A DNA stretch of 45,293 nucleotides, taken from the IMG/VR virus record IMGVR_UViG_3300045988_084795; one strand, written 5' to 3'. Position 1 is the stretch's first letter. Each line of letters opens with the position of its first letter. Below the pieces are notes generated by a model. That model had not been told where the DNA came from. It was given only the letters and a program-made list of their open reading frames with translations, and did no database searches. Positions 10,500 through 38,285 of the stretch are shown here, piece after piece. The position numbers and the translations under genes are program-made. The stretch comes from a virus.

Positions 10500-11255
10500 C
10501 TACTTTTTTCGATTTTTTTTCAAAGCCGTGCAAGTTTTCTTTCCTGCATATGTTCCAGACGTGTTCCATCCTAACTGTTTCCAGTATTTCTTCAAGGCTT
10601 GCATTGTCTTTGTTTTCCAGATTCCGTCAACCGCTAATGGATGTTCGTTTGCATATGTACAATTTGCGTTCAGCTTCTTTTGTAACCACTTGATCGCATT
10701 CTTGGAAGAGTTCTTTTTTACAACGCTGTATGATACTTTTACGTTATCATATTTAGGTCGTCCATATCCTGCGATACGACTATTGCCTAAAGCATAAGAC
10801 TTCTTGCACACTGCACCACCGTTTGGAATAACCGCTTCTCCATTGCTTGTGTTTCCCTCGACCGTGAACACCATCTCATCTGTGACTGCATACACAATTC
10901 CAGTGTGGCAGATTCGTGTTGAGTTCTTGAAAAAAATCTGGTCTCCAACCTTTGGTGTTTTATGCCATTGGTCATTGTCTTTGAATTTTTGTGCTGATGT
11001 TGGAGTGTATGCACTAAATCCATGTAAAAGATTTTTTGCTACATCCCTGCCGTACGCCTGCACCATGCACCAGTCAACAAACATGTCGCACCAGTAAGCA
11101 TCTGGACCGTTAATGCCAAAGTATGCTCCATACTTAGTGTAGTTGTTGCTACCTGCGTTCTTTGTCTTGCTGTTCAGATTCTTATTGCTTTTCTTCTCTA
11201 AGTATCCAACTTCTCCTTTGGCTACTGTAAGAAACTTGTCTACTGTATTCGCCAT
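10500..11255 (-). CDS. Endolysin: N-terminal CHAP-type peptidase/amidase plus a C-terminal peptidoglycan-binding domain
   Basis: CHAP Cys context AYWCDMFVDWC and His context ICHTGIVY. The C-terminal part, AIKWLQKKLN...LAVDGIWKTKTMQALKKYW, is PG_binding_1-like. Directly downstream of the holin. Confidence 0.85.
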   Translation of the reverse strand: MANTVDKFLTVAKGEVGYLEKKSNKNLNSKTKNAGSNNYTKYGAYFGINGPDAYWCDMFVDWCMVQAYGRDVAKNLLHGFSAYTPTSAQKFKDNDQWHKTPKVGDQIFFKNSTRICHTGIVYAVTDEMVFTVEGNTSNGEAVIPNGGAVCKKSYALGNSRIAGYGRPKYDNVKVSYSVVKKNSSKNAIKWLQKKLNANCTYANEHPLAVDGIWKTKTMQALKKYWKQLGWNTSGTYAGKKTCTALKKNRKK

Positions 11256-11256
11256 A

Positions 11257-11526
11257 TTAGTTCTCCTTTTTGTACTCGATTACCTCTGCAATATCTGTCT
11301 TATTCTTTGCAAGCTCGCTGTCTCCGATACCGCTTGTTGTTGGGTCTACCAATACACCCACCGCTACTAAAATATTAAGGATGATACCTACAAGCTGTGT
11401 TACTGCATCCTGTGCGATTGGTGCTGTGATACCTAAGATTCCTAAAATCTGATAGATAAATGCGATTAAGGCAGAAGCTAATGCCACCAGTGTTGCTTTA
11501 TTTTTGAAACGTAATTTTAAATTCAT
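11257..11526 (-). CDS. Holin (phi-LC3 / Phage_holin_1-like)
   Basis: Two TM segments followed by VLVDPTTSGIGDSELA, typical of this holin family. Immediately upstream of the lysin. Confidence 0.8.
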   Translation of the reverse strand: MNLKLRFKNKATLVALASALIAFIYQILGILGITAPIAQDAVTQLVGIILNILVAVGVLVDPTTSGIGDSELAKNKTDIAEVIEYKKEN

Positions 11527-12813: not shown

Positions 12814-13011
12814 TTAATTCAACTTGTTTTCTCTGACGTAGCTTCTGATAGCATCAATGTGCTTTTTAAGTTCTTTATCTACTACCCAGAAATTTTCTTT
12901 TTTATTCTGTGACAATGGTTCTCCTGTGTTATCGTCAATCTCATTGTATGTGTATGATACTCTGTCTCCACCGTCAATATTTAATACCATAAAACTACTC
13001 AACTGTTTCAT
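12814..13011 (-). CDS. Small hypothetical tail-module protein
   Basis: Co-oriented 65-aa ORF whose start overlaps the end of the upstream gene. Confidence 0.5.
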   Translation of the reverse strand: MKQLSSFMVLNIDGGDRVSYTYNEIDDNTGEPLSQNKKENFWVVDKELKKHIDAIRSYVRENKLN

Positions 13012-16000
13012 TTAAAATTTCCTCCTGCTCTTTAATTAAATCGCTGATTTCTTCCATATATTCTTTCTCATAGTCAATCACTTCTTCTTTTTCTGAGTTA
13101 TCGAATTTTTCAAGTCGTTCAAATTCGTAATCTTTCTGAATTGCTTTGATTTCCCACGAAAACTTAAGATTTTCAGTACCTTTTACGGCAAAGTAGCTAT
13201 CGGTCTTTTCTTCTACCCATAAGTCGCCTTTGCCCTCTTTCTGCAAGAATACTTGGTACTCAACACCTATGTTTACTGTCTCTGAAAATATATCGTCAAT
13301 GTCTATGTAACATTTTCCTGTATTATCAGTACATCCAGAACCTATATCCCCAAAATATGGGGTTGCTGTTTCGTAACAATACTGCTTTCTTGTATCGTAA
13401 TTTTCTGTATCTATGATTCTGTTTTTTGTTCCTGCAACAGACAAATTACCGCCAATAGTAACTGGCTGAAAAAAACTTGATTTTTCTTTTCCAAAATGAA
13501 ATTTATATTCACTTACCGACCCAAGATAAAGTGATTCATCCGTCATATGCATTGTTATGTCTGTCTGTACTGTAATTGGTCCACTGCTGTTATTTTTTAA
13601 TACAATCTCATCTGGGGACAAAATCGCACATGCACCAGTTCCATCCTTGTTTTCAGATAAATATATACCACCGAACACGTCTGGTGTTATACACACATAT
13701 GATATTGGCTTTTCTCCCATGCCTGATATATAATGCGTTACGACTATCCCTTTCGTGTTTATGTCAACAATTTCATTGTCATTTGCATCATAAACGTGCA
13801 TTTGTCCATTACCGTACGTGTTTGCTTTTCCACCAAGATTTAATGTTCCACCTCTAGCATAAGTAAAGTTGATATACAACTTACCGTCAGACCCACGATA
13901 AATACCTTGCCATGCTCCGTCGTTGGTCAGCAGATTGAATATATCTTCGTGAGTCAGTGCATCTACGTCAATGGCTACTGGAATTGTCTCAATATCCAAC
14001 ACCTGTGAAAATCCACCTGCGGCATACATCGTACACCTTAACGCTGTAAGATTTCTTGAGATACCGATACCACTTGAACCGCTTGCTGTGATACCACTTG
14101 AACCACTCGCTAGTACAGAGTACAGTGCGTGTGTAATGTCCGTTTCATCTGAAGATGAAGTATAAACGGTCGTGTATGTATCTCCGTCAGTTGTTTCCTC
14201 AATCTTGAATCGGCACTTATAGGCTGTACGTGCTGTTGCTGTACCGTCACGGTAGTAACCAGATAATGTAATGTAGTTCGGCACAATCGTGTTGTCCGCA
14301 GACATTTTCACGATACTTGACGATGTTTCCATGAAGTACGTTCTTCCTGCACTTCCTTGCGGACCAGTTGCTCCCGTATTCCCTTTTTCTCCCTGTGGTC
14401 CTGTTGCCCCTGTCTCTCCCTTGATTCTTGCCCAAGTGTAAGAAGCTACTGTCGTTGGGTCGTTTAGGTTGTAATTCGTACAAGTACCAATGTAATCTCC
14501 TACCGTTTCGCCAGAATTGGAAGTAAAAGTTTTTCCACCATCGTTTGAGTATTTGATGTGAAGATAAGATGTTTTTCCATCAATACCGTTAGTACCTGCG
14601 ATACCCTGCGTACCTTTTTCTCCCTGTAATCCTTGGAATCTTGCCCATGTATATTTAGATGGGTCGTTTGAGTCGGCTTCTGTAAAGTCCACGTATGTTC
14701 CAATATAGGTAGATGGGGTTTCAGTCATTTGAGAAGCTGTTGTAGGTTTTGCAACAGAGCTGTACTTAATGTGGAAATATGTTGTAGCTCCACTAGCACC
14801 CTGCGGGCCTCTGATACCCTGTTCTCCCTGCGGTCCTTGGATTCCTTGTAACCCCTGTGGTCCTTGGTCTCCTTTTTCGCCTTTTTCTCCTTGCGGTCCT
14901 GTCGCACCAGTGTTACCTTTCTCTCCCTGTGGCCCTTGCGGACCAGTAGCACCAGTTTCTCCCTTTGCACCTGTTTCTCCAGGAATACCGCCTTTTAATT
15001 TCGCAATGTCAAATCTTTTCGTAACTGAATAAGTATTAAGATAATTTGCTGTAATATCCACCCATCCAACATCTGTTGTTAATGCTGTCACAGTGTAGGT
15101 ATGAGTTGAATTATTCCAAGAACCTACGACACCGCTTGACTTCTGCACGTTGTAAGTACAGTCGTTAGATATATCAGTATGACCGTATAAAACCTGTGCT
15201 GTCGTGTGGCACTCTGGAAATGATGTATATTCTCCCTTATAATCTGTCGTGATTGCTTGATAATCGTTGTCCAGATTGATAATCATTGCACGAGATTTTC
15301 TCGCTTCTTCCAGTGCCTTGTTAGCAGTCTCATCATCTGTGTATTTATTAAGTTTCTGCCAGTCAGTTTCCACATAACTTGCACCCTCTCCCCTTGCTAC
15401 AACGCAAGTAAGGATGTCTCCGTTCTGTCCTTGATTCCACATATCGCCAGTATCATAAGGTGGTGTAGGCTGTGTCAAAAATACACGACATTTACTGTCT
15501 GCTGTGGACTGTGCGAAAGATGCTGTCCTTAATGCTTTTGTAACGTCCGTGTCTTGTACTAACTGCCACTTCCATGTGTCGCCATCTTTGAAGAATCTGT
15601 AGGCATATCCTTTAGATTTCCAATAAAATAAGTCTCCCTCATGCTTCTTTTTATCATCTTCTGTTGTCCAGTCAGAAGCAGGGATATTTTTTAATGTTGG
15701 TTCGTAATCGTAGTAGAACGTCTCAATTTGTCCGTCTATCTGGTTCTGTAGGTCCGCTACACTTTTTGTAACTGTTTCTGCAAAATCTGATACTTTACCA
15801 TCTGCGTAGTTCTTAGATTCTTTCACAGCATCACTAATTGCTTCTGGTGCTGTTTTGCCACCAATCGTGACGTTGTCCCCAGAAATCTTTACAGTACCAG
15901 TCTCCATATCTGCATAGAAGATAATATTTCCAGATTTATCTTTGACTGTTAATGCACCAGTGTTGATATAATCTGCATTGATTCCCTCTGTATAAAGCAA

Positions 16001-17362
16001 TCTTGCTACCATTTCCCCAGTGATCGTGAATCCATAAGGATATGTCTTACCGCCATCTATAGAAAATCCAATAACCTCTGCTGTCAATTTGATAACATTC
16101 TTTGATTCTTTCATTGTTGGTTTATCATGGAGATAATATATAGTTGAACCATCCAATAGCACTTCCTGTGTTGAATACATTCCGTTACTATTTTTTAATG
16201 CTTCTTGCATCTTATCTACAGCATTTTGACGGTTATTTCTTTCCTGCTCAACTAACTGTTTCCCTTGTATGATCGCTTTTTGATTACTTGATGTGTAGTT
16301 GCTCTGGTTACGCAATGGAGATTCTGCACTATTCTTTAATGTTGTATATCCGAAGAATACAAAGTTTACATCTGTTAATACAGAATAGAAGCTATTTTCT
16401 CTCCAATCTGTAACTTTAATCTTATCCATAAACTCTGCTATTGGATAAGATATATAGTCCATCGTAAAAGCTCTAAAAGTCACATTTCCAAACTTTTCAT
16501 AAATCCACGAAATAAGTGTCTCTTCATGCCCTGTTACAAGTGGATTCTCTACAGATAAAACATAACCATCTTTACCAACTTGTACCGTTTTTTCTGTGTC
16601 ACTTGTATTGCCATCATCATCGGTTGTAGTAACCTTTCGTGTCATTCGTACGCCTGTTACCTGCACATCGTTCGTATCACTTGTCAGTTTATTGTAATCA
16701 ACCAATTTATGAATATCCTCACTATCATAATCAAAATCATAGGTCATTATCTGTAATCGCCCTGTGCGGTCAATTCTTGCATTTCCGCAGGCAATCATTG
16801 CAATAAATCCTATAATTTGTCGGTGTGTATACTCACTAGATGGCATGGTTGGTATCTGGAAGTCATTATGTAAAAAGTTACTATTTCCAATCAAGATACC
16901 GCAGGTATCACAACTATCAATTAGCACACTCTTTGCTGTCGCAGGGAATGTCAATGTTGTGCTGTATGTCTTATCTGCTTTATACATATCATCGTATCCA
17001 ACAATCGTTACAACACTTCCGTAGGTTTCTGGTTGAGTGACGGTAAATATACCGTATTCAATTTTTTCTATCGTTGATGATAATTCAAACGTCAGATATA
17101 GTCTGATTTTTGCTCCAAAGAAATCATAATCAGATAAGTGTTCATCGTCATTCATGATTTCTAACTGTACATTACGGCTGAGTGCAACACCTAAAGGAAT
17201 GGTGTTAGCACCTGCCGAATCAACAAGACTATTGTTATCTATTGAAAAATCATCTTCTCCTAATGGCAGTACAGTTCCATTCGCAAGCGTTACTTCTGCA
17301 TTGCATTTAAAATCTTGTCGTTCTGTCATTAGCTGTTTAAATTCATCACTTACATTTATCAT
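12995..17362 (-). CDS. Tail tip / tail-associated protein (prophage tail endopeptidase-type N-terminus) with collagen-like G-X-Y tracts and a C-terminal fibre domain
   Basis: 1455 aa, located directly after the TMP and Dit-position genes. Three G-X-Y blocks (e.g. [43 protein letters not shown]). The module ..Y(F/L)HIKYS...YIGT...DP..Y(T)WAR is duplicated. Confidence 0.85.
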   Translation of the reverse strand: [1455 protein letters not shown]

Positions 17363-25968: not shown

Positions 25969-26988
25969 TTATCCGTTGGATTTAATAACACCCATGCGGA
26001 TATTCTTCTGGTTAAATGCTAAAGACCAGTTTCCTTTAGTTCCTAACTCTGCGTTTGTAGGAGACTCTTTTGCAATCTTGTTAGCATTAATAGAAAATCC
26101 GTTAGGATGTAATACATAACCCTGTTTTGTATACAGCTTTTCAATACCGGCAGATGTTTCTGGGTCATAGTCTGTATAATAAGGATTTTCATAGTTTGTC
26201 TTATCACAAGTCAATACTGAACCTGTACCAAGCATATAAGTTTTGTATACTGGGTTTGTTCCTGTTGTATCAACTGTAAATCTGTCTGTTACCAGTGGGA
26301 TAAATCCACCGATTGTAGGAAGATTTACTTCTCTTTCTACTGCGTTAGCAATAGTGTATTTGTTGTAGTCAACAAGTCCCATTGCTTTGTACTTTGCGTA
26401 GATGTAAGAGTTTAATACAAGTAATCCCATCTTGTCAGCGGAATCTCCTAAAGCTTTCTGCTGTGCAAAGATAAGTGTTGTATCATCAATTTTGTTTGCA
26501 TCTCCTACAGTGCCCTCGCCAGTTAAAGATAAGTCTGTAATATGGTTTTCCATACCAGACAGGCTTAAAACTGCATCAACTGTAGTCATTAAGTCACGTG
26601 TTCTTACCTGCTTATAGAAGCTTGCAACAGAGTTTGCAACATGAGTCATAGGGTCTGCACCTGTTAACTCTTTTGTAAAGTCTTTTGATTTCCAAGCTTT
26701 CATTCTCTGGATTAACATGCAAGTCTGTTTCTTTCCTGTGATTTCAACAGGTGTATTGTCTGTTTCTCCATCGTTGTTTAAAGCCTGTGAGTCCTGTTCA
26801 TCAATCGGTGTATAGAAAGGAATTGTTGCAACGTTTCCTTTTTCTCCGATTAAATCCATAATTGTATTGTCCTGTGCTAACACACCAGATGCAATAATCG
26901 CATCATTCCATGTTGGGTTTTCTGTCATATAACGAGAAAATTCTTCTGGGTCAAAATAAAAACCGCCAAATAATCCTGTTCTTGGCAT
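25969..26988 (-). CDS. Major capsid protein
   Basis: 339 aa, immediately downstream of the scaffold gene. A leader hairpin and strong RBS lie upstream. Confidence 0.75.
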   Translation of the reverse strand: MPRTGLFGGFYFDPEEFSRYMTENPTWNDAIIASGVLAQDNTIMDLIGEKGNVATIPFYTPIDEQDSQALNNDGETDNTPVEITGKKQTCMLIQRMKAWKSKDFTKELTGADPMTHVANSVASFYKQVRTRDLMTTVDAVLSLSGMENHITDLSLTGEGTVGDANKIDDTTLIFAQQKALGDSADKMGLLVLNSYIYAKYKAMGLVDYNKYTIANAVEREVNLPTIGGFIPLVTDRFTVDTTGTNPVYKTYMLGTGSVLTCDKTNYENPYYTDYDPETSAGIEKLYTKQGYVLHPNGFSINANKIAKESPTNAELGTKGNWSLAFNQKNIRMGVIKSNG

Positions 26989-27109: not shown

Positions 27110-27739
27110 CTATCTGTCATTTAATAAGGTTGCATAGTATTCTGGGTCCTCTGCCTTAAGCTTCATTCTGTCGTCTAAAGACATTTCCCTTAACTTCTGT
27201 GTTCCCTTTTTCTGCTCTCCGCTGTTGAACTTAGTCGTAAAGCTTGGGATATTAGGAGCTGGTGCTTTCTTTTCGTCAACCAAGATGTTCTCAATTGGTT
27301 TCCCATCTTTAGTAGTAAGTTCTTTAAATACATCTTCTGCATTTTTCCCATTCTCTTCTTCTAACTTCTGAATCATCTGGGAACGGATAGAGTCTTCTGT
27401 GATTGCATTTACAAATTTTTTATCAGATAAGAAATCTTTTACCTTGTCTCTTAACTCTGTCTGCTTAGCTTCTTTTGCTCTTGCTTCTTTTTCGTCTGCA
27501 AGCTCCTGTGTTAATGTTGTAATCTTAGCTTTAAGACCGTCAACATCTTCTTTCTCTAATTCGGCTAATCTGGTCTGTACATCGTCTAAAGATGTTTTGT
27601 ATTCATCTTTTTTCTCTACCTGTTTATTATAATCAGCTACAGTCTTATAATTTTCGGCATGTCTTTTTTTAAGCTCTGCCTTTTTCTCTTCTGGGATTTC
27701 GATTCCTAATTCTGCTAAAATCTGTTCGTAATTCTGCAT
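27110..27739 (-). CDS. Scaffolding protein (GP20-like)
   Basis: Charged coiled-coil protein. The N-terminus (YEQILAELGIEIPEEKKAELKK...ENYKTVADYN) is typical of the phage GP20 scaffold family. Confidence 0.8.
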   Translation of the reverse strand: MQNYEQILAELGIEIPEEKKAELKKRHAENYKTVADYNKQVEKKDEYKTSLDDVQTRLAELEKEDVDGLKAKITTLTQELADEKEARAKEAKQTELRDKVKDFLSDKKFVNAITEDSIRSQMIQKLEEENGKNAEDVFKELTTKDGKPIENILVDEKKAPAPNIPSFTTKFNSGEQKKGTQKLREMSLDDRMKLKAEDPEYYATLLNDR

Positions 27740-27813
27740 ATATATCCTCCTACATTGTTTGTATACCGCTATGTCTGCGGTAATGAATTAAGACTTATAT
27801 ACCTAAGTCAAGG

Positions 27814-27842
27814 TAAAAGAAATGTGGGGACTTGAACCCCAC
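27814..27842 (-). terminator. Terminator closing the cargo island (the hairpin looks like a tRNA T-arm)
   Basis: The minus strand reads GTGGGG-TTCAAGT-CCCCAC followed by ATTTCTTTT. Confidence 0.5.
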
Positions 27843-27986
27843 TCGAGCCTCGAACTCTTTTCCTGTTGTCGTGTAACCAAAAACGCTTAAAAAACTCTGT
27901 ACTTACAAGGAGGCTGTGGCAAATCTGCATAATTCCTACATATTTATTGTAAACCCTAAAATATGCCGTTTCAATACCCTCTTTTT

Positions 27987-28409
27987 TTACATTTCCGCAA
28001 GTTTCTTTATCTGTCGCTGTATCTCTTTTCTCTCGTCCATAAAGTCAGAATCAATAACCATAGAAGAAAGCATATCATACACTTCCACCATCAATCTACC
28101 GACCGATTCCATAAGCTTATCACGGTGTCCTTGATCTCCGTTTTCTTTGTATGCCATTTTAGAACTTAAGTAGTTGTCATACAATGCATCTATATTTTTA
28201 TCATATTTGCCATTGCTGTACTTCTTAATAAGATTCTCTCCTGCATCCATGACGGTTTCCGCTATGTCTCCATGCTCCATCTTTTCCAGATTGCATAATG
28301 TTGTTGTAATCTTATACATTGCATCAAGATTAGATGTTGTGAGCTGTTTTAATGCTGAGTTTTTTTCTCTTTCTAGCTGTTCTTCCAGAACATGTTTGAT
28401 TTCACTCAT
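27987..28409 (-). CDS. Cargo island protein 6, helical, unknown function
   Basis: 140-aa ORF with a coupled start (it overlaps the upstream stop). Confidence 0.55.
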   Translation of the reverse strand: MSEIKHVLEEQLEREKNSALKQLTTSNLDAMYKITTTLCNLEKMEHGDIAETVMDAGENLIKKYSNGKYDKNIDALYDNYLSSKMAYKENGDQGHRDKLMESVGRLMVEVYDMLSSMVIDSDFMDERKEIQRQIKKLAEM

Positions 28410-28996
28410 AATTTGACCTCCTTAAGCTTCTTTTTGTATTTCTCATGAATGCAGTCCTGTGTCTCTGTAATATACACCATGTCGTATCCTACAGAGATTA
28501 GATCAGTAACCATCTTTTCAACCGTTTCTAGCTCTTTAGATACGTCTTTTACCAGACATTCTACAAATAGTGCATCCGATACGTTTCCGTTCGTTCTAAG
28601 TTGCTGTGCGTACTTCTCATAGGCTTCTTTTGTCTCTTTCTCCCAGTTGTGATACTCTATAAAGCCATCCTCTACGGCTTTTTGCTTTGTGGATTTTCCG
28701 ATACTTAGTCTACTGGCTGTATACCAAGAGTCGGGAATCACTTTTATAGTACCGCTAAAAGAATCTTTTAAAAGCTTGCCGTGATGATCTACAAAATACC
28801 TGCATATTTCACGTCTCTCCAAGCTTTCTGTAAGAAACTGGTATTCATGTAATCTTTTGTAGCCTTTCAAACCTAAGAAGTTGAAATAGTCTGCCATTTG
28901 ACCGTGTATCATCATAGCCGCTACATATCTTTTGTTGATCTCGTCAAAGATATCTTCTGTTTTTGTTACTTCAAGATTGTTTGTAAATTCAATCAT
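28406..28996 (-). CDS. Cargo island protein 5, helical bundle (ferritin-like pattern without obvious metal ligands; tentative)
   Basis: INKRYVAAMMIHGQMADYFNFLGLKGYKRLHEYQFLTESLERRE has ferritin/Dps-like helix A-B spacing. RBS AAGGAGGTG. Confidence 0.5.
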   Translation of the reverse strand: MIEFTNNLEVTKTEDIFDEINKRYVAAMMIHGQMADYFNFLGLKGYKRLHEYQFLTESLERREICRYFVDHHGKLLKDSFSGTIKVIPDSWYTASRLSIGKSTKQKAVEDGFIEYHNWEKETKEAYEKYAQQLRTNGNVSDALFVECLVKDVSKELETVEKMVTDLISVGYDMVYITETQDCIHEKYKKKLKEVKL

Positions 28997-29008
28997 GATC
29001 GCACCTCC

Positions 29009-29437
29009 TTAAGAGATACGCTTTATAATAATATTCGCATCTTTTACTATTGCCGTTGTTGTTCCTACATTTCCGATGCTTACGATTAAGCTACCGCCAG
29101 ATGGTACAGTTACAACCGTTGTTGCTCCCACGTTCTGAAATGTGTTCGCTGTAACTACTGTATAGTCCATTTCTGTTCCACCAATAGCTTCTCCGTTAAG
29201 CTCTACAGCAAGTGCCGTTGCTCCTGCTGCATTAGCGGATACATTTCCGTTAAATTCTACCTCTACAGTCATAGGACAGTTTGATCTATTCGTTAACGTA
29301 AACAGACCAGACCCCTCTACATGATTCAGCCACCCATAATTACAAGTACAACGTCTGCTACTATATCGTGTATTCGCAAATAGTACGTTTGCACCACTGT
29401 TTACATCCTGCTGTGCTACATTTACCGCATTTAACAT
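29009..29437 (-). CDS. Cargo island protein 4, beta-rich domain resembling BclA C-terminal / C1q-TNF-like domains (tentative)
   Basis: ATG at 29437 with RBS AGGAGGG. Pattern of alternating beta strands, N(G)xxIGG, and a C-terminus ...VKDANIIIKRIS like exosporium BclA-type domains. Confidence 0.5.
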   Translation of the reverse strand: MLNAVNVAQQDVNSGANVLFANTRYSSRRCTCNYGWLNHVEGSGLFTLTNRSNCPMTVEVEFNGNVSANAAGATALAVELNGEAIGGTEMDYTVVTANTFQNVGATTVVTVPSGGSLIVSIGNVGTTTAIVKDANIIIKRIS

Positions 29438-29542
29438 AATTTTCCCTCCTAAACAAAAATAGGATGCCGAACCCGACACCCTATCGTCAATATATTGCTA
29501 GTCTACTTAGTAGATATGGATTCTCCAACAAGCTTGATTTAT

Positions 29543-30232
29543 TTACACATTTACACTTCCGCAGTTGCAACCACCGTATGCATACCCATTATAGGATACA
29601 TAAGGACTTGCTGTAATGTATGCAGGTGTTGGGAATGGTCTAACAGCATCCACAATGTTCTTAGTCTGTGATACCTGCGAAATCTGGAAGTTAGATAACT
29701 GTAAGTCTCTATCTCTGTCCGCAAGTTTATCTCTAAGATTCTGGATTGTGTTGTCCTGCATCAACTGGCGTGTAGCCTGTCCGTCTGCGAGGATTGTTTC
29801 CTTAATATCACAGCAACACTGTGCCATCTGTGCCTGCATATTCTGGGCCATTAAAGCCGCATCATAGCGGTTCTGTAACACTTCTTTCTGTGTTTCACAG
29901 CAACAAGCCTGCTGTTGTGCCTGCATCTGCTGTAATCCTAACTGTGTTGTGTATCTGCTTTCTAATACGTCTCTCTGTGTCTGACAAGCTGTATTAGATA
30001 CGTTCTGGTTTGTATTGAAAATATCTCTCTTAACAAACTCATCGGATAAGAAAGCATTTTCGCCTGCGGTCGTTGCGGTATCGTTATTTCTTCCCCATCC
30101 GTTACCACAGAAAAGGAAAGCAATTAAGATAATCCAAATCCACCAACCACCGTTGCCGAAGCCGTTATCATATCCGTCATTTCTTGTCACTGCCGCTACA
30201 TCTGCCGCAGTGAGTCCCATTGCTTCATTCAT
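29543..30232 (-). CDS. Cargo island protein 3: G/N/W-rich membrane anchor plus a duplicated Q-rich coiled segment with Cys triplets
   Basis: GFGNGGWWIWIILIAFLFCGNGWG. Two copies of Q..R..L..RY...L..Q.MQAQ..(A)CCC(E/D). C-terminus YGGCNCGSVNV. Confidence 0.6.
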   Translation of the reverse strand: MNEAMGLTAADVAAVTRNDGYDNGFGNGGWWIWIILIAFLFCGNGWGRNNDTATTAGENAFLSDEFVKRDIFNTNQNVSNTACQTQRDVLESRYTTQLGLQQMQAQQQACCCETQKEVLQNRYDAALMAQNMQAQMAQCCCDIKETILADGQATRQLMQDNTIQNLRDKLADRDRDLQLSNFQISQVSQTKNIVDAVRPFPTPAYITASPYVSYNGYAYGGCNCGSVNV

Positions 30233-30282
30233 TGTTGTTGTCCTCCATAAATTTATTTACCAAGCTGTGCACCGCTTAATAT

Positions 30283-30540
30283 CTATTTATTCACTTTATC
30301 CACAATATCCTGTGGATTCATGCCCTGCTGTTGGCATAAGTTGTTAAACACTTCCTGTGGGTTCTTCCCACTGCACATTTCCATTGCCTGCTTAATCGCA
30401 GGATTTGTCTGTGCCATACTTTCAACCATAGACTGCGGATTGTTAGACCCTCTTACCATGCCCATTACCTGCTGTACCATTTGCATAGGGTTGTTGTTTC
30501 CTATCATACCGCCTATCATGTTCATTAAAGGATTACTCAT
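30283..30540 (-). CDS. Cargo island protein 2, Met/Asn/Gln/Pro-rich, low complexity
   Basis: MSNPLMNMIGGMIGNNNPMQMVQQVMGMVRGSNNPQSMVESM... The start overlaps the upstream stop. Confidence 0.55.
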   Translation of the reverse strand: MSNPLMNMIGGMIGNNNPMQMVQQVMGMVRGSNNPQSMVESMAQTNPAIKQAMEMCSGKNPQEVFNNLCQQQGMNPQDIVDKVNK

Positions 30541-30970
30541 TGCTTAACTCTCCTTTCTCTGGTTGCTCTCCTAGCTTTGCTAGAAGTTCTTCAAACTCTG
30601 TTCTTGTAACATATCTATTATCATAGTTTACATTTTGTTTTTGGGCGTTCTGCGTGGCTTCTGGCGGTATCTCCTCGAATCTAAATACCTTAAAAGTTGC
30701 ACTGCCCATTCCATCTACACTCTTTACATAAAAGAAAGGTGCGTTGTTGTCCATCATCCATGCTGTAGCCCCTGGCTGTACGATCTGGTTCTTTGCTCCC
30801 TCTATGCCTGCAACTTGTATCCAATTAACATTCTGTGTTGGAACTTGTGTCTCTGGCATTGGTTTATTGTACTGCTGTTGCATTTGCTGTAACTGATTTA
30901 GCCTATCCTGCAACTGCATTGTATCCTGCTGATACATTGGTGCATAAGGATTATAGTTATATCCGTTCAC
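30533..30970 (-). CDS. Cargo island protein 1, Q/N/Y-rich N-terminus plus a small globular domain
   Basis: GTG start with RBS GGGAGGTGG. The N-terminus reads NGYNYNPYAPMYQQDTMQLQDRLNQLQQMQQQYNKP. Confidence 0.55.
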   Translation of the reverse strand: MNGYNYNPYAPMYQQDTMQLQDRLNQLQQMQQQYNKPMPETQVPTQNVNWIQVAGIEGAKNQIVQPGATAWMMDNNAPFFYVKSVDGMGSATFKVFRFEEIPPEATQNAQKQNVNYDNRYVTRTEFEELLAKLGEQPEKGELSNE

Positions 30971-31060
30971 TCTTCCACCTCCCTTTTATGTGTAAATTAT
31001 CGCATTAAAAAAGAGACTCTAACAGGTCGTTAAAGTCTCATAAAAGTATCAGTATTAAGT

Positions 31061-31094
31061 TAAAAAATAGCACCATGATAGGGGTCATGGTGCT
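31061..31094 (-). terminator. Rho-independent terminator downstream of the tRNA
   Basis: AGCACCATGA (31069..31078) pairs with TCATGGTGCT (31085..31094). A T-run follows on the minus strand (plus-strand A-run at 31062..31067). Confidence 0.65.
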
Positions 31095-31237
31095 TAGGTT
31101 GAGATAAAATTGAGGAACACATATATGATTTGATAAAACCAGTTTAGTGTCATGATGAAAAATGAAAAATTCAAAACCAACAAAATCTTTACTTTGAGGA
31201 AATTTAAAAATTTCTTATGCCCACAACAGTGAGCAAA

Positions 31238-31311
31238 TGGAAGCAACAGGACTCGAACCTGTGACAGGTCGGTTATGAGCCGACTACTCTGACCAACTGA
31301 GTTATACTTCC
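31238..31311 (-). tRNA. tRNA with anticodon CAU (Met elongator, or Ile2 if lysidine-modified), 74 nt, no encoded CCA
   Basis: Hand-folded cloverleaf. Acceptor arm GGAAGTA/TGCTTCC (one G-U). D arm ACTC-AGTTGGTCA-GAGT. Anticodon arm GTCGG-CTCATAA-CCGAC. Variable loop CTGTC. T arm ACAGG-TTCGAGT-CCTGT. Discriminator A. Confidence 0.85.
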
Positions 31312-31532
31312 ACGGACTCCGTTAGGAATCCACCGTACTATATTGCATAAACAAAAATAAAAAAAGGATTAAAGTATTATAACATGAAAAAAGTATCTCC
31401 GAAACAAGCAACTATCATTTAAAACTAAAAAGGAAATCTTATAATTATTTATTCAACAACTTATTACTTGTTACATTTATATTGTATCATGGATTTTTAC
31501 CTTTTCAATCCCCCTCTTTTTTTCATTGTCCA

Positions 31533-31796
31533 TTACATATCAAATTTGACATTTTCCCACTTCTTATAAGCATCCATGTATAGCTCCCTCTTATCTCCGT
31601 TAAATGTCATTTCATAATACATTCCATCGGATAATGTCGTGCTTAACAGTGCTTTATGATTCTGTAATGTCTTAGCATACCAGACAACGTATATATCGTT
31701 GATCGTAAGATGTTTCTGATCTGTCTTATCAATATGATCATTCACATAATCTGCAATCTTGGCTTTGCATACTGCTAAAAATTCTCTACTTTCCAT
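31533..31796 (-). CDS. Hypothetical protein
   Basis: 87-aa co-oriented ORF with an RBS. Confidence 0.5.
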   Translation of the reverse strand: MESREFLAVCKAKIADYVNDHIDKTDQKHLTINDIYVVWYAKTLQNHKALLSTTLSDGMYYEMTFNGDKRELYMDAYKKWENVKFDM

Positions 31797-31805
31797 TTTC
31801 TTCTC

Positions 31806-32021
31806 CTAACATACTCTAATAATCTTATTATTAACTCTCCTGCTGATTCTCTTTGCTGTAGACAGACTTACGTTCATAAGCTCTGCACATTTCTCTAGTG
31901 GTATATTCTTTGCCCGATACTCGAACAATATTCTTTCAATATCTGTGAAGTTGCAATACATACGAAAACGATTTAGTTCTGGTATGGTAAAATCATATAC
32001 TTTCAAGTAGAAACACCTCAC
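31806..32021 (-). CDS. Small sigma-70 region-4 / ArpU-RinA-like HTH transcription regulator (tentative)
   Basis: ERILFEYRAKNIPLEKCAELMNVSLSTAKRISRRV resembles region 4.2 / LuxR-type HTH. Confidence 0.45.
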   Translation of the reverse strand: MRCFYLKVYDFTIPELNRFRMYCNFTDIERILFEYRAKNIPLEKCAELMNVSLSTAKRISRRVNNKIIRVC

Positions 32022-32350
32022 TGTTTGTCGTGTGTTGTCAGTGCATTTATCAGATCGTCTCTGGTTTTTTTTAGACCCTCAATGTTGTTTCCAGTAATCT
32101 TATTCTCAATCAAATTAAACATACTCTTCATGACTAAGTTCATATCGTCTTGCTGTTTGTTGATCGTACTATAGTCACTATTGAGCTTTTGATTAATTTC
32201 TTTGATATCTGTTTCTATATGTTCTATTCGCTGTTCCAAATCGTCTGTAGGCTTCTTGTAATGCTTATAGGCAGTGTACAATACTCCTATAGCTCCACCA
32301 ATTGTAATAATCCACCCACAGGCTACCATAATTTCGTTTATAGTTTCCAT
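32018..32350 (-). CDS. N-terminally anchored coiled-coil membrane protein
   Basis: TM segment IMVACGWIITIGGAIGVLYTAY followed by heptad-like sequence. The start is coupled to the upstream stop. Confidence 0.5.
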   Translation of the reverse strand: METINEIMVACGWIITIGGAIGVLYTAYKHYKKPTDDLEQRIEHIETDIKEINQKLNSDYSTINKQQDDMNLVMKSMFNLIENKITGNNIEGLKKTRDDLINALTTHDKQ

Positions 32351-33567
32351 TATTTACCTCGTGCATTGTTGTATCGTGTCGCTGCACCTCGTGCTGAGGA
32401 TGCTTGACTCCTGTTCCAGTCTGCCGTGTTTAGTCGTTCGCTTTGCTTCTTAAGATTGTTCTCTTTGCAGTAATCATTGTAGGCTTTGTTCTGCTTCTGC
32501 AATAGTGCAGCCTTTTTTTGATACTCCATGTCAAGCTCGTGCTTTAAAGCTTCGTCCTTTGCATTATCCACAGCCGTTTTCATGCCGATTAACTGCCGTT
32601 TCGTCTTTCTGATACGTCTTTCAAGCTCTCTCTGTCGTTTCCGTTTCTCGTATTCTTTGCGATTCTCTTCGCTGTCGTAGTCCTCGAACGGATTATTTAT
32701 TCCATCCCCCGGTCCGTGGGAGTGTCGGCAGTTTGCCCCATGGATTCCCTGCACGTTTCCCATACCGCAGACCGAAAAAGGCGGAAATCTTGGGTCATTA
32801 CCGCTTTTGCTGTAAAACTTGCCTTGCCACCAGAAATGATTGGTTAAATTATCCCCACCGTTTCCGATTCTGGCTCCCAGATGGGCAGATGTTAGGATAA
32901 TATCCCAATCCATCTCGTCCATACGTGCGTCTGTAATATCTGCTGCCATCTGGCTTACACCAGTGCGGACCGCTCTTGCTGTAGCTGTCTCTATGCTGTC
33001 TCTACGTCCACTTGGATAAGTTACGTCTGCCCCTTTGTCTATAATGTTATTAACAGCTTCTTTAACCGCTTGTGTGTACCCTGTCGTACCGCTTGCAGTC
33101 TGTGTATATGCTTTATCCACTGCCTTAATGTAATTATCATGGCAAGCATTCGGCATCGTACCGGTGTAGTTATACATCTCTCCCTTGGTCTTTTCATAAT
33201 TCCTCTGCAACAATCGTTGCAGATAAGGACTTTCCCCGAGTGGTTTTGGTTCAAGACCTGCCTTTTTATATACTGCATCATCCCACTCTAAGGCTTTTAT
33301 ACCTGCTTCTTTCATGGTCCGTGCAATTGTATCAATTCCTATCTTTGTTGTTTGTGCAATCTCTTTCTGTACCGCTTGCAAGATATACCCTGCATCCTGC
33401 AATACATCCATCTGCCACTTGTCAATAGAAGTAAAAAGGTAATCTTCCCCACGTCCTAGCCTTATCATCATTCGTTCGACGATTACAGATACAATCTTAT
33501 TATGTAGCTCTTCCGCTTGCTTCTCTGCCTTTTCTGGCACATACCATAAGTAATCTGGCGTTAGCAT
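32350..33567 (-). CDS. Minor head / head morphogenesis protein (minor capsid protein 2 / Mu F-like)
   Basis: Immediately after the portal gene. ILTSAHLGARIGNGGDNLTNHFWWQGKFY is typical of this family. Confidence 0.75.
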   Translation of the reverse strand: MLTPDYLWYVPEKAEKQAEELHNKIVSVIVERMMIRLGRGEDYLFTSIDKWQMDVLQDAGYILQAVQKEIAQTTKIGIDTIARTMKEAGIKALEWDDAVYKKAGLEPKPLGESPYLQRLLQRNYEKTKGEMYNYTGTMPNACHDNYIKAVDKAYTQTASGTTGYTQAVKEAVNNIIDKGADVTYPSGRRDSIETATARAVRTGVSQMAADITDARMDEMDWDIILTSAHLGARIGNGGDNLTNHFWWQGKFYSKSGNDPRFPPFSVCGMGNVQGIHGANCRHSHGPGDGINNPFEDYDSEENRKEYEKRKRQRELERRIRKTKRQLIGMKTAVDNAKDEALKHELDMEYQKKAALLQKQNKAYNDYCKENNLKKQSERLNTADWNRSQASSARGAATRYNNARGK

Positions 33568-37287: not shown

Positions 37288-38106
37288 TTATTCTCGATCT
37301 GGTTCCCAAGTGGTCCCGAATTTTTTTTTATGTGCCTCGGCGTACTTGTCAAAAAATTCTTGATCAGACGAAAGGCTCAATTCATACGCCACGCTTTCTC
37401 TTAAATCTGCATCCATTGATTTTAGCGCTTCGTCAAAATCAATTTCTTTCCCATATTTGTTTTTTACATTCATCCGCGTACCTCCTTTATTATTGCTTGC
37501 TTTGTTTCTATACTCGTCTCTTTCTTTCAACAGCGTGTCAAGATTTGTTTTCTCGCCACGATTAATCCGTGCCCTTGCGTTTCTGATCTGCGCTTGTTTG
37601 TGTCGGCAGTAATCACTACAAGTGTTACTTGCAACTTTGGATTGGAATTTTTTACCGCAGTATTCGCAAATTTTTTGTTTTTTGCTGTTCTTTTCCAATT
37701 TCTTTTTTGTCTGTTCTGTCTCTTTATTATAAGCACTTTTATATTCTTTTTGCAATAATAAGCCTGCTTCGTGTTGGCATTTTTCCGAACAATATTTTTG
37801 CCTGCCTGCCGTTACAATATATTCTTTTCCGCACAGCTCACACTTATCGACACTCCCAAGCTTCCTTTTAGCTGTTTTTCCTTGCCTAAATCTCTTTTGT
37901 GCTTCTTTGGTCCGTATAACTCTACAATCTGGACAGTAAAACGCTCTAGGTCCACCGTTAAACTCTTTACCACACATCCTACACACTCTAATTCTCATTA
38001 CATTAGATTTTCTTTTTTTTGCACATTCGTCACAATATAACTTATCCGGACTACCATAAAAAGATTTGCCGCAATCCAAGCAAACCTTTTTTGTTCTATA
38101 TTTCAT
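37288..38106 (-). CDS. Protein with four zinc-ribbon repeats and a distinct acidic C-terminal domain
   Basis: Four repeats of C-x2-C-G-K-x-(F/Y)-x6-8-(Y/T)-C-x2-3-C. ATG at 38106 with RBS AAAGGAG. Confidence 0.6.
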   Translation of the reverse strand: MKYRTKKVCLDCGKSFYGSPDKLYCDECAKKRKSNVMRIRVCRMCGKEFNGGPRAFYCPDCRVIRTKEAQKRFRQGKTAKRKLGSVDKCELCGKEYIVTAGRQKYCSEKCQHEAGLLLQKEYKSAYNKETEQTKKKLEKNSKKQKICEYCGKKFQSKVASNTCSDYCRHKQAQIRNARARINRGEKTNLDTLLKERDEYRNKASNNKGGTRMNVKNKYGKEIDFDEALKSMDADLRESVAYELSLSSDQEFFDKYAEAHKKKFGTTWEPDRE

Positions 38107-38108
38107 TT

Positions 38109-38285
38109 TTAAAGCTCCTTTACAACTTCCCACCCGTCAATAGCTGCCGTTGTGTCTAAGTCTTCAATTGGCAGCCTTTTTATTAAAGGCCTTTCGAGTC
38201 TTATATCTTCATCAATTATATATCTGTATTTTCTTGTATCAACTATTCTTTCCCTCTTCACTCTTTCCCAAAATTCTTTTTTCAT
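38109..38285 (-). CDS. Small ORF (58 aa)
   Basis: RBS GGAGGGAG upstream of the ATG at 38285. Its stop lies 2 nt before the next start. Confidence 0.35.
   Translation of the reverse strand: MKKEFWERVKRERIVDTRKYRYIIDEDIRLERPLIKRLPIEDLDTTAAIDGWEVVKEL

Follow-up and report, generated by a model that had tools for sequence, protein, structure and literature searches.

Results

A conserved accessory module separates the minor head and scaffold genes

We analyzed a 45,293-nucleotide (nt) stretch of viral DNA, IMG/VR record IMGVR_UViG_3300045988_084795 (hereafter "the window"), and within it the ~4.5 kb at positions 27814-32349, which lie between the minor head protein gene and the scaffold gene and contain three small genes (g1 to g3), a tRNA gene, and six further genes (op1 to op6). 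These ~4.5 kb are layered: g1 and g2 form the tail of the preceding operon, a hot-spot of ~0.8 kb follows, an ancient module of op1 to op6 comes next, and what appears to be a decayed tRNA stands last, before the scaffold gene. We hold this layered anatomy with considerable confidence. The best-supported statement is that op1-op6 constitute an ancient, autonomous accessory module, which is found in phage and prophage contexts only and appears to have a promoter, and probably also a regulator, of its own.

On the minus strand the genes run in the order TerL, portal, minor head, g1, g2, g3, tRNA-Met, two hairpins, op1-op6, a promoter-like box, a hairpin, scaffold, and major capsid (Table 1). An earlier reading, made from the sequence alone, had listed the genes, the tRNA, and the two hairpins of this stretch, and all of them are real and lie where it placed them; it had also taken the stretch to be extra relative to the basic head module, which is borne out by phages that go almost straight from minor head to scaffold. 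Blautia phage Montmirail, an active prophage of B. coccoides (PMC10197239), is 50% (TerL), 53% (portal), 52% (minor head), 46% (scaffold), and 75% (major capsid) identical to the window and passes from the minor head to the scaffold gene in ~135 nt, a gap that holds a tRNA-like minihelix. No module genes were found in the head-gene region of Montmirail that was examined, and searches of the phage collection with op1, op3, and op4 gave no Montmirail match. C. difficile phage phiCD38-2 has one 94-amino-acid (aa) open reading frame (ORF) at the same position. The ~4.5-kb stretch is thus an insertion relative to the basic head module. Neither this stretch nor the whole head region gave a megablast match among 50,697 phage records.

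The sequence-only reading had gone further and called the whole stretch a cargo island. For op1-op6 that description fails, since the same genes stand at the same position in most relatives and are conserved as much as, or more than, the head proteins. Recurrence at this position was one half of an outcome that the sequence-only reading had itself named as refuting it, the other half being stoichiometric presence in virions. Identity of relatives to the window was 46-76% for TerL, 30-58% for the portal, and 26-54% for the minor head protein, against 70-77% for op3, 60-65% for op4, and 56-67% for op5; two relatives (L091 and L094) retain 53-76% identity in the op proteins at only 27-30% in the major capsid protein. 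Iterative profile searches found op1-op2-op3 contiguous in all 24 diverse loci, op4 in 17, op5 in 11, and op6 in 19 of them, and op1-op3 were present in all 80 close loci as well. The module consists of an invariant core, op1-op2-op3, and a second unit, op4-op5-op6. GC content is unremarkable in op1-op6 (0.36-0.44 vs. 0.36-0.45 in the head genes).

This division is also visible in the spacing of the genes. A single, tightly coupled operon of six genes had been described; the six genes are there, but they form two triplets, in which op1 and op2 overlap by 8 nt and are followed by a 50-nt gap to op3, and op4 and op5 are 12 nt apart with op5 and op6 overlapping by 4 nt. The 105-nt spacer between the triplets contains a terminator-like hairpin. 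In several prophages, this op3/op4 junction is a second cargo spot inside the module, where DNA methyltransferase look-alikes (DPPY motif) and PAPS (3'-phosphoadenosine-5'-phosphosulfate) reductase-like genes are inserted (both read from sequence, with no domain search).

The module also occurs away from head genes. C. perfringens phage PMQ04 carries, downstream of its amidase and holin genes, op1, op2, op3, a 119-aa beta-rich Cys-containing protein, a 73-aa protein, an op6-like protein, and op5, and Butyrivibrio phage Ceridwen carries op1, op2, op3, op4, and an op6-like protein after its endolysin gene. The cassette proteins of Ceridwen, PMQ04, and a third locus (L100) gave no Pfam match and matched only PHROG families of unknown function. 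When bacterial genomes were scanned with an op1 profile built from 12 sequences, all 16 loci that were fetched proved prophage-like, most of them flanked by phage head genes, and no sporulation or non-phage context and no host paralog was found among the 16. The conservation of the module across diverged capsids, its recurrence elsewhere, and its absence from Montmirail together indicate that it is old, mobile as a unit, strongly constrained, independent of capsid type, and dispensable for virions.

In many relatives, but not in the window, the module is accompanied by a recurrent protein of ~125 aa (phrog_3754, 1.2e-35) with a conserved Cys (GDCAIRA), His, and Asp; judged from these residues, it looks like a papain- or transglutaminase-type triad.

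The same comparisons bear on the possibility that the op products are virion accessory proteins, with op4 a trimeric, possibly glycan-binding decoration of capsid or fiber and the rest decoration, cement, or internal proteins. The module lies between head genes, and does so in most relatives; strong GGAGG ribosome-binding sites precede op1, op3, op4, op5, and op6; TNF/C1q-like knobs are frequent as receptor- or glycan-binding tips of phage fibers; and the window phage has a collagen-repeat tail fiber. Capsid type and module do not go together, however: the op proteins are well conserved in L091 and L094, where the capsid is not, and the module is absent from Montmirail, where the capsid is 75% identical. 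Nor does a virion role sit easily with the location of the module downstream of lysis genes in Ceridwen and PMQ04, with its apparent insulation by a terminator and its putative promoter, or with the very hydrophobic membrane segment of op3, which would be unusual for a siphophage capsid protein. None of the six op proteins matched a structural Pfam family or a PHROG head or tail family, and profile scans placed none among known head-decoration or internal-virion families; such a placement had been named in the sequence-only reading as one outcome that would speak against it. We consider a virion role quite improbable.

The core proteins op1, op2, and op3

We then turned to the products of the module. 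Pfam and NCBIfam scans of the six op proteins returned nothing significant. By inspection, op1, op2, op4, op5, and op6 lack a signal peptide and a single strongly hydrophobic segment is found in op3; with the only hydrophobic N terminus in op3, the op products are likely made in the cytoplasm. The odd compositions that had been reported for op1, op2, and op3 were borne out by residue counts. op1 contains 13% Gln and 10% Asn and is built from a Tyr/Pro/Gln/Asn-rich, prion-like N terminus, a conserved domain of ~60 aa (NWIxVxGxxGAKxxxVxPxxTxWMMD..FYVKSxD), and a C-terminal YVTRxEF helix. Its family comprises 1225 clusters at 50% identity, all of 70-200 aa. No match was found for op1 in the PDB by sequence or profile search, nor in Pfam for 40 diverse op1 relatives; membership in the GerQ family was considered and rejected, with no match among 40 op1-family sequences. 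op2 is even more biased (15% Met, 15% Asn, and 13% Gln, with repeated NP..M motifs), had no family match in Pfam, PHROG, or NCBIfam scans, and has homologs that always lie between op1 and op3. Because op1 and op2 are translationally coupled and always adjoin op3, they are likely to be partners or chaperones of op3.

op3 carries a GGWWIWIILIAFLFCGNGWG segment, two CCC triplets, and a YGGCNCGS tail. An alignment of the family shows a conserved layout: the N terminus is short, a hydrophobic segment flanked by Gly and Trp follows, and next comes a helical, Gln-rich region in which CCC triplets occur once or twice. A motif rich in Pro (RPxPxPAY..SPY) and a Cys/Gly tail complete the protein. Ceridwen, PMQ04, and L100 all retain this tail, which reads NGCGNWNGCGSYNGCGQCGGCGSC in L100, as well as the CCC triplet. 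None of the 1368 op3 homologs has a name.

This layout, with a short N terminus, one transmembrane segment, and a large Cys-containing C-terminal domain, resembles that of the T4 holin, so that op3 and g1 might act on the membrane at the end of infection, with the other products as regulators of lysis timing or release. g1 adds to this picture, as it shows weak matches to spanin and holin PHROGs (1e-4 and 5e-4) besides those, also weak, to DUF7365 and phrog_1009 (1.7e-7), and its homologs, which adjoin g2 in relatives, include one that opens the lysis cassette of Ceridwen; there the module follows the endolysin gene, as it follows the amidase and holin genes in PMQ04. The window nevertheless encodes a canonical holin (PF04531) and an endolysin elsewhere, op3 is far more conserved than is usual for holins and has no sequence match to any holin family, and the ferritin-like and TNF-like partners would be left unexplained. 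A role in lysis timing is therefore very unlikely in our view.

op4 is predicted to adopt a BclA-C-terminal/TNF-C1q fold

The sequence-only reading had likened op4 to BclA_C and C1q-like domains, and both family matches and structure prediction uphold the likeness. Although a 156-aa ORF with a GTG start can be drawn for op4, it overlaps the hairpin at 29485-29458 and all homologs have 142 aa, so the ATG at 29437 is most likely the real start. PF18573 (BclA_C) is matched by 15 of 27 aligned family members (63-68% identity to op4; best 2.3e-8), one homolog is named BclA C-terminal domain-containing in UniRef, and BFVD holds stand-alone op4 homologs of ~140 aa from uncultured gut phages, some of them named "BclA protein." Sequence and profile searches of the PDB with op4 found no match. 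An AlphaFold2 model (predicted local distance difference test [pLDDT] 72.8) was compared with the PDB by Foldseek: the top five matches were BclA C-terminal domain entries, with template modeling (TM) scores of 0.65-0.71 (3tyj and 1wck, TM ~0.7, E 2.7e-7), followed by ExsFA/BxpB and then by TNF/C1q proteins; the TM score was ~0.65 for 7r1m and 8d02. op4 is thus predicted to have the BclA-C-terminal/TNF-C1q fold. It lacks the collagen-like GXX repeats of the BclA exosporium glycoprotein, the jelly-roll filling the whole 142 aa.

These matches to the exosporium proteins BclA (C-terminal domain) and ExsFA/BxpB fit the proposal, made in the sequence-only reading, that the module remodels the spore surface, the prophage supplying coat- or exosporium-like proteins (a BclA_C-like knob, Cys- and Gln-rich cross-linkable proteins, and a ferritin-like coat protein) to be added to the host spore within the mother cell. 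All op products lack a signal peptide, as coat proteins do, three of 12 g2-family members match the GerE-type helix-turn-helix (HTH), many of the hosts are Clostridia, including C. perfringens and Lachnospiraceae, and the ~125-aa Cys/His/Asp protein seen beside the module in relatives might act as a cross-linking enzyme. The proposal nevertheless fares poorly. A search for sporulation promoters, which the same reading had suggested, found no sigma-E, sigma-K, sigma-F, or sigma-G consensus in the six intergenic stretches of the island but only sigma-A-type extended -10 boxes (regular-expression scan; such consensus scans are weak evidence). The suggested resemblance to GerQ and YjcZ did not extend to membership in either family, and no match to GerQ (PF09671), YjcZ (TIGR01732), CotJ, or Coat_F was found among the six proteins and 40 op1-family members. 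Every genome locus that was fetched was prophage-like and no host paralog turned up, g2 is translationally tied to the late packaging operon, and TNF/C1q knobs are also common in phage fibers. Moreover, the module is present in Ceridwen, for which lytic growth alone is recorded, on Butyrivibrio fibrisolvens. Butyrivibrio is a non-sporulating genus. We give spore-surface remodeling only a slim chance.

op5 is predicted to have a ferritin fold without an intact ferroxidase center

One of the two proteins op5 and op6 had been described as having ferritin-like helix spacing but no obvious metal ligands, and for op5 we arrive at the same view. Its AlphaFold2 model (pLDDT 84.5) has helices at residues 13-40, 44-72, 101-135, 139-168, and 173-195, and all of its top 50 Foldseek matches in the PDB are ferritins, with target-normalized TM scores mostly of 0.74-0.85. 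A profile search of the PDB also returned ferritins, in register though weakly (E ~0.04, helices A and B). In this alignment, ferritin E17 corresponds to an invariant R23, E50 to E57, and H53 to E60, and the invariant Glu residues of op5 are E57, E60, E109, E119, and E155; the full ferroxidase set (E17, E50, H53, E94, and E130 in archaeal Ftn numbering) is not present. The model and alignment together indicate that op5 keeps the ferritin fold and has a degenerate ferroxidase center. op6 is helical and had no match in the PDB; an alignment of its relatives shows a GGYS/YSR-rich low-complexity insert in the middle of the protein.

A ferritin fold with invariant Glu residues, next to an op2 with 15% Met and an op3 with conserved CCC triplets and GCGxCG-type tails, could also be read as a system for metal or redox-stress handling, in which op2, op3, and op5 bind or sequester Cu, Fe, or Zn in the infected cell. 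The replacement of ferroxidase ligand E17 by an invariant Arg and of H53 by Glu runs counter to this, as do the absence of op5 from 13 of the 24 loci and the lack of a metal-binding family match for any op protein, and op1, op4, and op6 would have no place in it. We regard metal handling as highly improbable, the least likely of the explanations considered here.

The verdict of the sequence-only reading that none of the six proteins could be assigned to a known family thus holds for op1, op2, op3, and op6, which on present sequence searches match no characterized family, and not for op4 and op5, whose fold families can be recognized.

g2 and a conserved cis-element precede the module

Upstream of the module, g1 is translationally coupled to the minor head gene, whose stop codon it overlaps by 1 nt, and g2 overlaps the stop codon of g1 by 4 nt, which makes these two genes the tail of the packaging/head operon rather than separate cargo. 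g1 to g3 had all been counted as content of the island; their presence is confirmed, but as cargo g1 and g2 drop out. The labels given to g1 (a membrane coiled-coil protein) and g2 (sigma region-4-like) stand, whereas g3, listed as a gene of unknown function, belongs to DUF6275.

g2 is directly upstream of op1 in 21 of the 24 diverse loci. Nine of 12 members of its family match PF04545 (Sigma70_r4; best 1.2e-4), seven of 12 match PF08281 (best 1.3e-5), and three of 12 match GerE; the window's own g2 reaches 0.038 against the region-4 model, under the Pfam cut-off, and also matches phrog_1190 (1e-5). The alignment covers the C-terminal 45 positions of the sigma profiles. A sigma factor was considered and rejected for g2, which has only 71 aa and lacks region 2 (or 3).

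Between g2 and op1 lies a cis-element made of a TGATACTTTT box, the terminator-like hairpin T2, a T-run, and an extended -10 box, TGCGATAAT, downstream of which come a CATAGAAA-like stretch and a strong ribosome-binding site. Most of nine relatives compared have the same elements in the same order (most clearly L056, L061, L091, L092, L093, and L106); the hairpin arms vary with compensating changes, whereas the TGC-N-AWAAT box is kept, and in three relatives the element directly follows g2, with the TGATACTTTT box overlapping the g2 stop codon. The element reads as a terminator of the upstream operon followed at once by a sigma-A-type promoter of the module itself. The scan found hairpins downstream of the module as well. 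Adjacency and the conserved cis-element suggest that g2 controls the module.

A cargo hot-spot between g2 and op1

Only the ~0.8 kb between g2 and op1 behaves as cargo. In a census of 83 relatives with an op3 at least 73% identical, the g2-to-op1 spacer ranged from ~90 nt, with no gene and no tRNA, to 2170 nt and had at least five gene contents: empty; DUF6275 plus tRNA-Met, which is the state of the window (~7 of 83); an 85-aa ORF plus tRNA; Tad2-like/DUF2829 (one or two domains) plus tRNA, in some cases together with the 85-aa ORF; and others. Tad2-like/DUF2829 (PF11195) genes occupy the hot-spot in ~37 of the 83, including near-identical sister phages (L086 and L087). Tad2 is a known anti-Thoeris protein family (PF11195), which marks the g2-to-op1 spot as an accessory or anti-defense hot-spot.

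The tRNA(CAT) in the hot-spot lacks the three G-C pairs in the anticodon stem that mark an initiator and could be an elongator tRNA-Met or a lysidine-modified tRNA-Ile; relatives have a tRNA-Ile(TAT) in the neighboring slot. AUA makes up 40-45% of the Ile codons in the terminase and portal genes and none of those in the scaffold and major capsid genes.

A putative promoter-genes-terminator unit that seems insulated from the late operon, has a sigma-A-type promoter box with an extended -10 and a membrane protein at its core, and adjoins a hot-spot with anti-defense (Tad2-like) genes invites comparison with a moron. On this view, the module would be expressed from the repressed prophage for lysogenic conversion, and its membrane-anchored complex would exclude superinfecting phages or alter the envelope. 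Typical morons and defense cargo do not, however, show such strong conservation and synteny across a wide clade; Ceridwen, seen only in lytic growth, has the module; no PADLOC defense-system model matched any op protein; and for the five cytoplasmic products among the six, a part in exclusion is not apparent. Sporadic presence, as expected of morons or recent cargo, was found for the g2-to-op1 spacer alone and not for op1-op3. Lysogenic conversion by the module is, on balance, improbable.

A tRNA slot and leader precede the scaffold gene

The sequence-only reading had closed the module with a terminator of its own at 27814-27842. The hairpin in question (27842-27824) is instead the T-arm, GGGGTTCAAGTCCCC, of a tRNA-like minihelix (27863-27818) that also has an acceptor-like stem and one further stem. 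This minihelix gives a weak match to the model of the tRNA-like mascRNA (E 0.08); as a detectable tRNA it was rejected, since neither ARAGORN nor the Rfam tRNA model calls one. The minihelix motif is present in 49 of 107 loci, a similar one is found in Montmirail, and in relatives the slot before the scaffold gene holds one to three real tRNA genes. From its sequence and position we take the element to be a decayed tRNA in a tRNA slot. The RNA fold of 27810-27990 is not unusually stable (z-score -0.69).

Two copies of a promoter-like pattern of ~40 nt, AAAAAGAGGG.ATTGAAA-N16/17-TACAAT, occur in the window, against 0.08 expected by chance: P1 lies ahead of the tRNA-Met unit and P2 ahead of the tRNA-like remnant. 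These two diverged copies suggest that the tRNA unit came from the slot before the scaffold gene, by duplication or by relocation.

Ahead of the scaffold gene there is always a tRNA or a tRNA-like minihelix, also in the module-less Montmirail, and then a conserved two-hairpin leader, ...TTACCTTGCC..GGCTTAATCCATTACC-GCnGnCnnnnGCGG-..AGGAGGAT. This was seen in a comparison of positions 27740-27863 of the window with 8200-8353 of L108 and with the ends of the op6-to-scaffold spacer in L003, L091, L092, L094, and L106. The tRNA-like element and the leader may, judging from their arrangement, be a processing signal for the scaffold/capsid mRNA. In relatives, the op6-to-scaffold spacer also contains, beside tRNA genes, a RAGATH-21 RNA (Rfam RF03097; 75-86 bits vs. 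a gathering threshold of 70.3), which was not found in the window, and in L094 two tRNA genes of this slot flank a skipping-rope RNA (RF02924; 11340-11423; 49 bits vs. a gathering threshold of 36.7).

A possible membrane-associated assembly

We propose the following mechanism for the module. Transcription arriving from upstream would be stopped at the conserved terminator, and the module would be driven from an extended -10 promoter of its own; g2, made from the late packaging operon, would act on the box-hairpin-box element and so turn the module on as a separate transcription class. op3 would anchor in the membrane through its Gly/Trp-flanked segment and extend a helical stalk braced by the Cys triplets, with the low-complexity, prion-like or Met-rich op1 and op2 as its partners or chaperones. 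The periphery would consist of op4 as a trimeric jelly-roll of the BclA C-terminal/ExsF type, op5 as a bundle or cage of ferritin type that is catalytically degenerate, and op6. The products would form a cross-linkable, membrane-associated assembly inside the infected cell, and this assembly would serve the interaction of phage and host cell (in late infection, release, or exclusion) and not capsid morphogenesis.

Taken alone, this mechanism is possible but doubtful; the reading as a whole, layered anatomy and assembly together, is plausible yet tentative, and we stop short of calling it probable. Several observations weigh against it. We infer the interaction, the assembly, and the localization of the op products throughout, and virion decoration or lysogenic conversion would account just as well for an accessory module that is conserved. 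What we call promoters and terminators are matches to consensus patterns, and promoter matches in the region are not above chance (15 found, 17 expected), so that the promoter-like boxes carry weight only because they are conserved across relatives. The case for control by g2 consists of adjacency and the cis-element, and hhalign gave no support for relating g2 by homology to the small protein that precedes the module in Ceridwen (probability 2.5%). For op4, the window's own protein gives no PF18573 match at E ≤ 0.1, and its model is only moderately confident, with two of five models above 60; a 133-aa beta-rich protein that replaces op4 in some loci was rejected as an op4 homolog (hhalign probability 6.9%).

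A bolder version of the proposed assembly can be put forward, although we think it unlikely: a widespread group of gut Clostridia phages would, with a self-regulated gene set, build an undescribed membrane-anchored, Cys-braced intracellular structure from prion-, TNF-, and ferritin-like parts, using exosporium-related blocks, assembling it in the cytoplasm, and releasing or exposing it at lysis, under a "post-late" class of transcription switched by g2.

Other features of the window

The window is from a temperate siphophage of gut Lachnospiraceae. Besides an integrase it encodes a CI-like HTH protein and an ERF recombinase, and Coprococcus comes genomes contain close homologs of window proteins. 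Its 1455-aa tail fiber (12995-17362, minus strand) has collagen triple-helix repeats at residues 801-855 (PF01391, 1.9e-14). Upstream of the small terminase gene, a 281-aa protein (37288-38133, minus strand) has a C-terminal AcrIC5 anti-CRISPR domain (PF22147, 3.2e-19) and, as a weak match, an N-terminal double zinc ribbon.

Table 1. Positions of the features discussed, in the window and in its relatives (L numbers)
Feature	Sequence	Position	Strand	Details
Minor head gene	Window	32350-33567	-	PF06152 in relatives
g1	Window	32018-32350	-	ORF; 110 aa, N-terminal transmembrane segment and coiled coil
g2	Window	31806-32021	-	71-aa stand-alone HTH, sigma-70 region 4 or LuxR/GerE type
g3	Window	31533-31796	-	DUF6275; PF19791, 1.8e-33; phrog_918
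Promoter-like copy P1	Window	31481-31520	-	AAAAGAGGGGGATTGAAA-N16-TACAAT; diverged duplicate of P2
Extended -10 box TGTTATAAT	Window	31376-31384	-	64 nt upstream of tRNA; pattern scan only
tRNA-Met(CAT)	Window	31237-31312	-	Stand-alone unit; ARAGORN; Rfam tRNA 67.7 bits
Terminator-like hairpin T1	Window	31069-31094	-	Closes tRNA unit
cis-element ahead of op1	Window	30996-31051	-	See text
Terminator-like hairpin T2	Window	31039-31013	-	
Extended -10 box TGCGATAAT	Window	31004-30996	-	TGC-N-AWAAT type
op1	Window	30533-30970	-	ORF; phrog_21718, 2e-22
op2	Window	30283-30540	-	85 aa; overlaps op1 by 8 nt
op3	Window	29543-30232	-	Single-pass membrane protein; phrog_16490 and phrog_9288, 8e-10
Terminator-like hairpin	Window	29458-29485	-	op3/op4 sub-unit junction
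op4	Window	29009-29437	-	142 aa, predicted stand-alone jelly-roll; start ATG 29437; phrog_20016, 1.6e-16
op5	Window	28406-28996	-	196 aa, predicted ferritin fold; phrog_17879, 1e-6
op6	Window	27987-28409	-	140 aa, helical; phrog_28802, 4e-11
Promoter-like copy P2	Window	27946-27986	-	AAAAAGAGGGTATTGAAA-N17-TACAAT
tRNA-like minihelix	Window	27818-27863	-	Acceptor-like stem, one further stem, T-arm
Scaffold gene	Window	27110-27739	-	PF06810, 4.9e-13
Major capsid gene	Window	25969-26988	-	
Holin	Window	11257-11526		PF04531, 1.2e-18
CHAP endolysin	Window	10500-11255		
Integrase	Window	8962-10215		
Tad2-like genes	L086; L087	8101-8463; 8182-8727		Near-identical sister phages
Genes inserted at op3/op4 junction	L097; L098; L105; L101; L104	9452-10186; 9652-10614; 10054-11010; 9756-10471; 9742-10455		Read from sequence
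~125-aa phrog_3754 protein	L004; L100; L002	5364-5756; 6402-6770; 4047-4424		Upstream of g2 in L095, L098, L101, L104
RAGATH-21	L003; L094; L106; L092	5745-5831; 11106-11195; 11196-11266; 9123-9208		

Significance and comparison with known systems

The phage is very common in human gut viromes: contigs with op3 turned up in 460 index blocks of the assembly collection, and hundreds of IMG/VR contigs carry it too. Across Lachnospiraceae phages, conservation of the module exceeds that of the capsid genes, and it reaches phages of Clostridium perfringens and rumen Butyrivibrio, while four of its six op proteins have no characterized relative. That a module is conserved, dispensable, phage-only, and probably equipped with its own regulator suggests a role in the interaction of phage and host that textbooks do not yet describe. 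The finding lends itself to direct testing, as lysogens are available (Coprococcus comes MSK.16.63, locus L093) and one relative, Montmirail, naturally lacks the module, and the hot-spot marks a place to look for new anti-defense genes.

No description of the module, its synteny, or its regulation was found in the searchable literature. The PHROG catalog does hold op1, op3, op4, op5, and op6, in families of "unknown function" (21718, 16490/9288, 20016, 17879, and 28802; Table 1); the proteins are thus known as phage proteins, but without a function and without a record that they form one syntenic module. As a whole the module fits no known kind, a statement that reflects the absence of matches, two of its components belonging to known fold families.

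Those two components can be set beside their relatives. op5 resembles the prokaryotic ferritins (Ftn; PDB 1s3q, 2x17, and 3qz3) in its predicted four-helix bundle, long B-C loop, and further C-terminal helix and differs from them in its degenerate ferroxidase center, a sequence identity of only 13-16%, and being optional in the module (11 of 24 loci). op4 shares its predicted jelly-roll with the BclA C-terminal domain and ExsFA/BxpB, the TNF/C1q-like trimers of the Bacillus exosporium, and, like ExsFA, stands alone as a domain of ~140 aa that lacks a signal peptide. Unlike BclA, it has no collagen-like repeats and no exosporium-targeting N terminus and is encoded only in phages; it departs from both in its conserved N-terminal Cys residues (RRCxC), and the window protein stays under the Pfam threshold.

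With the small phage regulators of the sigma-region-4 or LuxR/GerE type, for example the late activators of the ArpU/RinA type in Firmicutes phages, g2 has in common a size of ~70 aa, a region-4-like HTH, and a position directly upstream of a possible target unit. It has no sequence match to the ArpU/RinA families and no regions 2 or 3, and it sits in the middle of the head genes rather than upstream of the terminase genes.

A parallel to the architecture as a whole is offered by the morons, the promoter-gene-terminator units in the late operons of lambdoid phages. Like them, the module stands between two late morphogenetic genes, has a promoter-like box and flanking terminator-like hairpins, and is absent from a close relative, Montmirail. 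It differs in comprising six to eight genes, in its deep conservation and synteny, in having a dedicated candidate regulator gene upstream, and in occurring at other genomic positions as well; it is the g2-to-op1 spot alone that resembles classical moron cargo.

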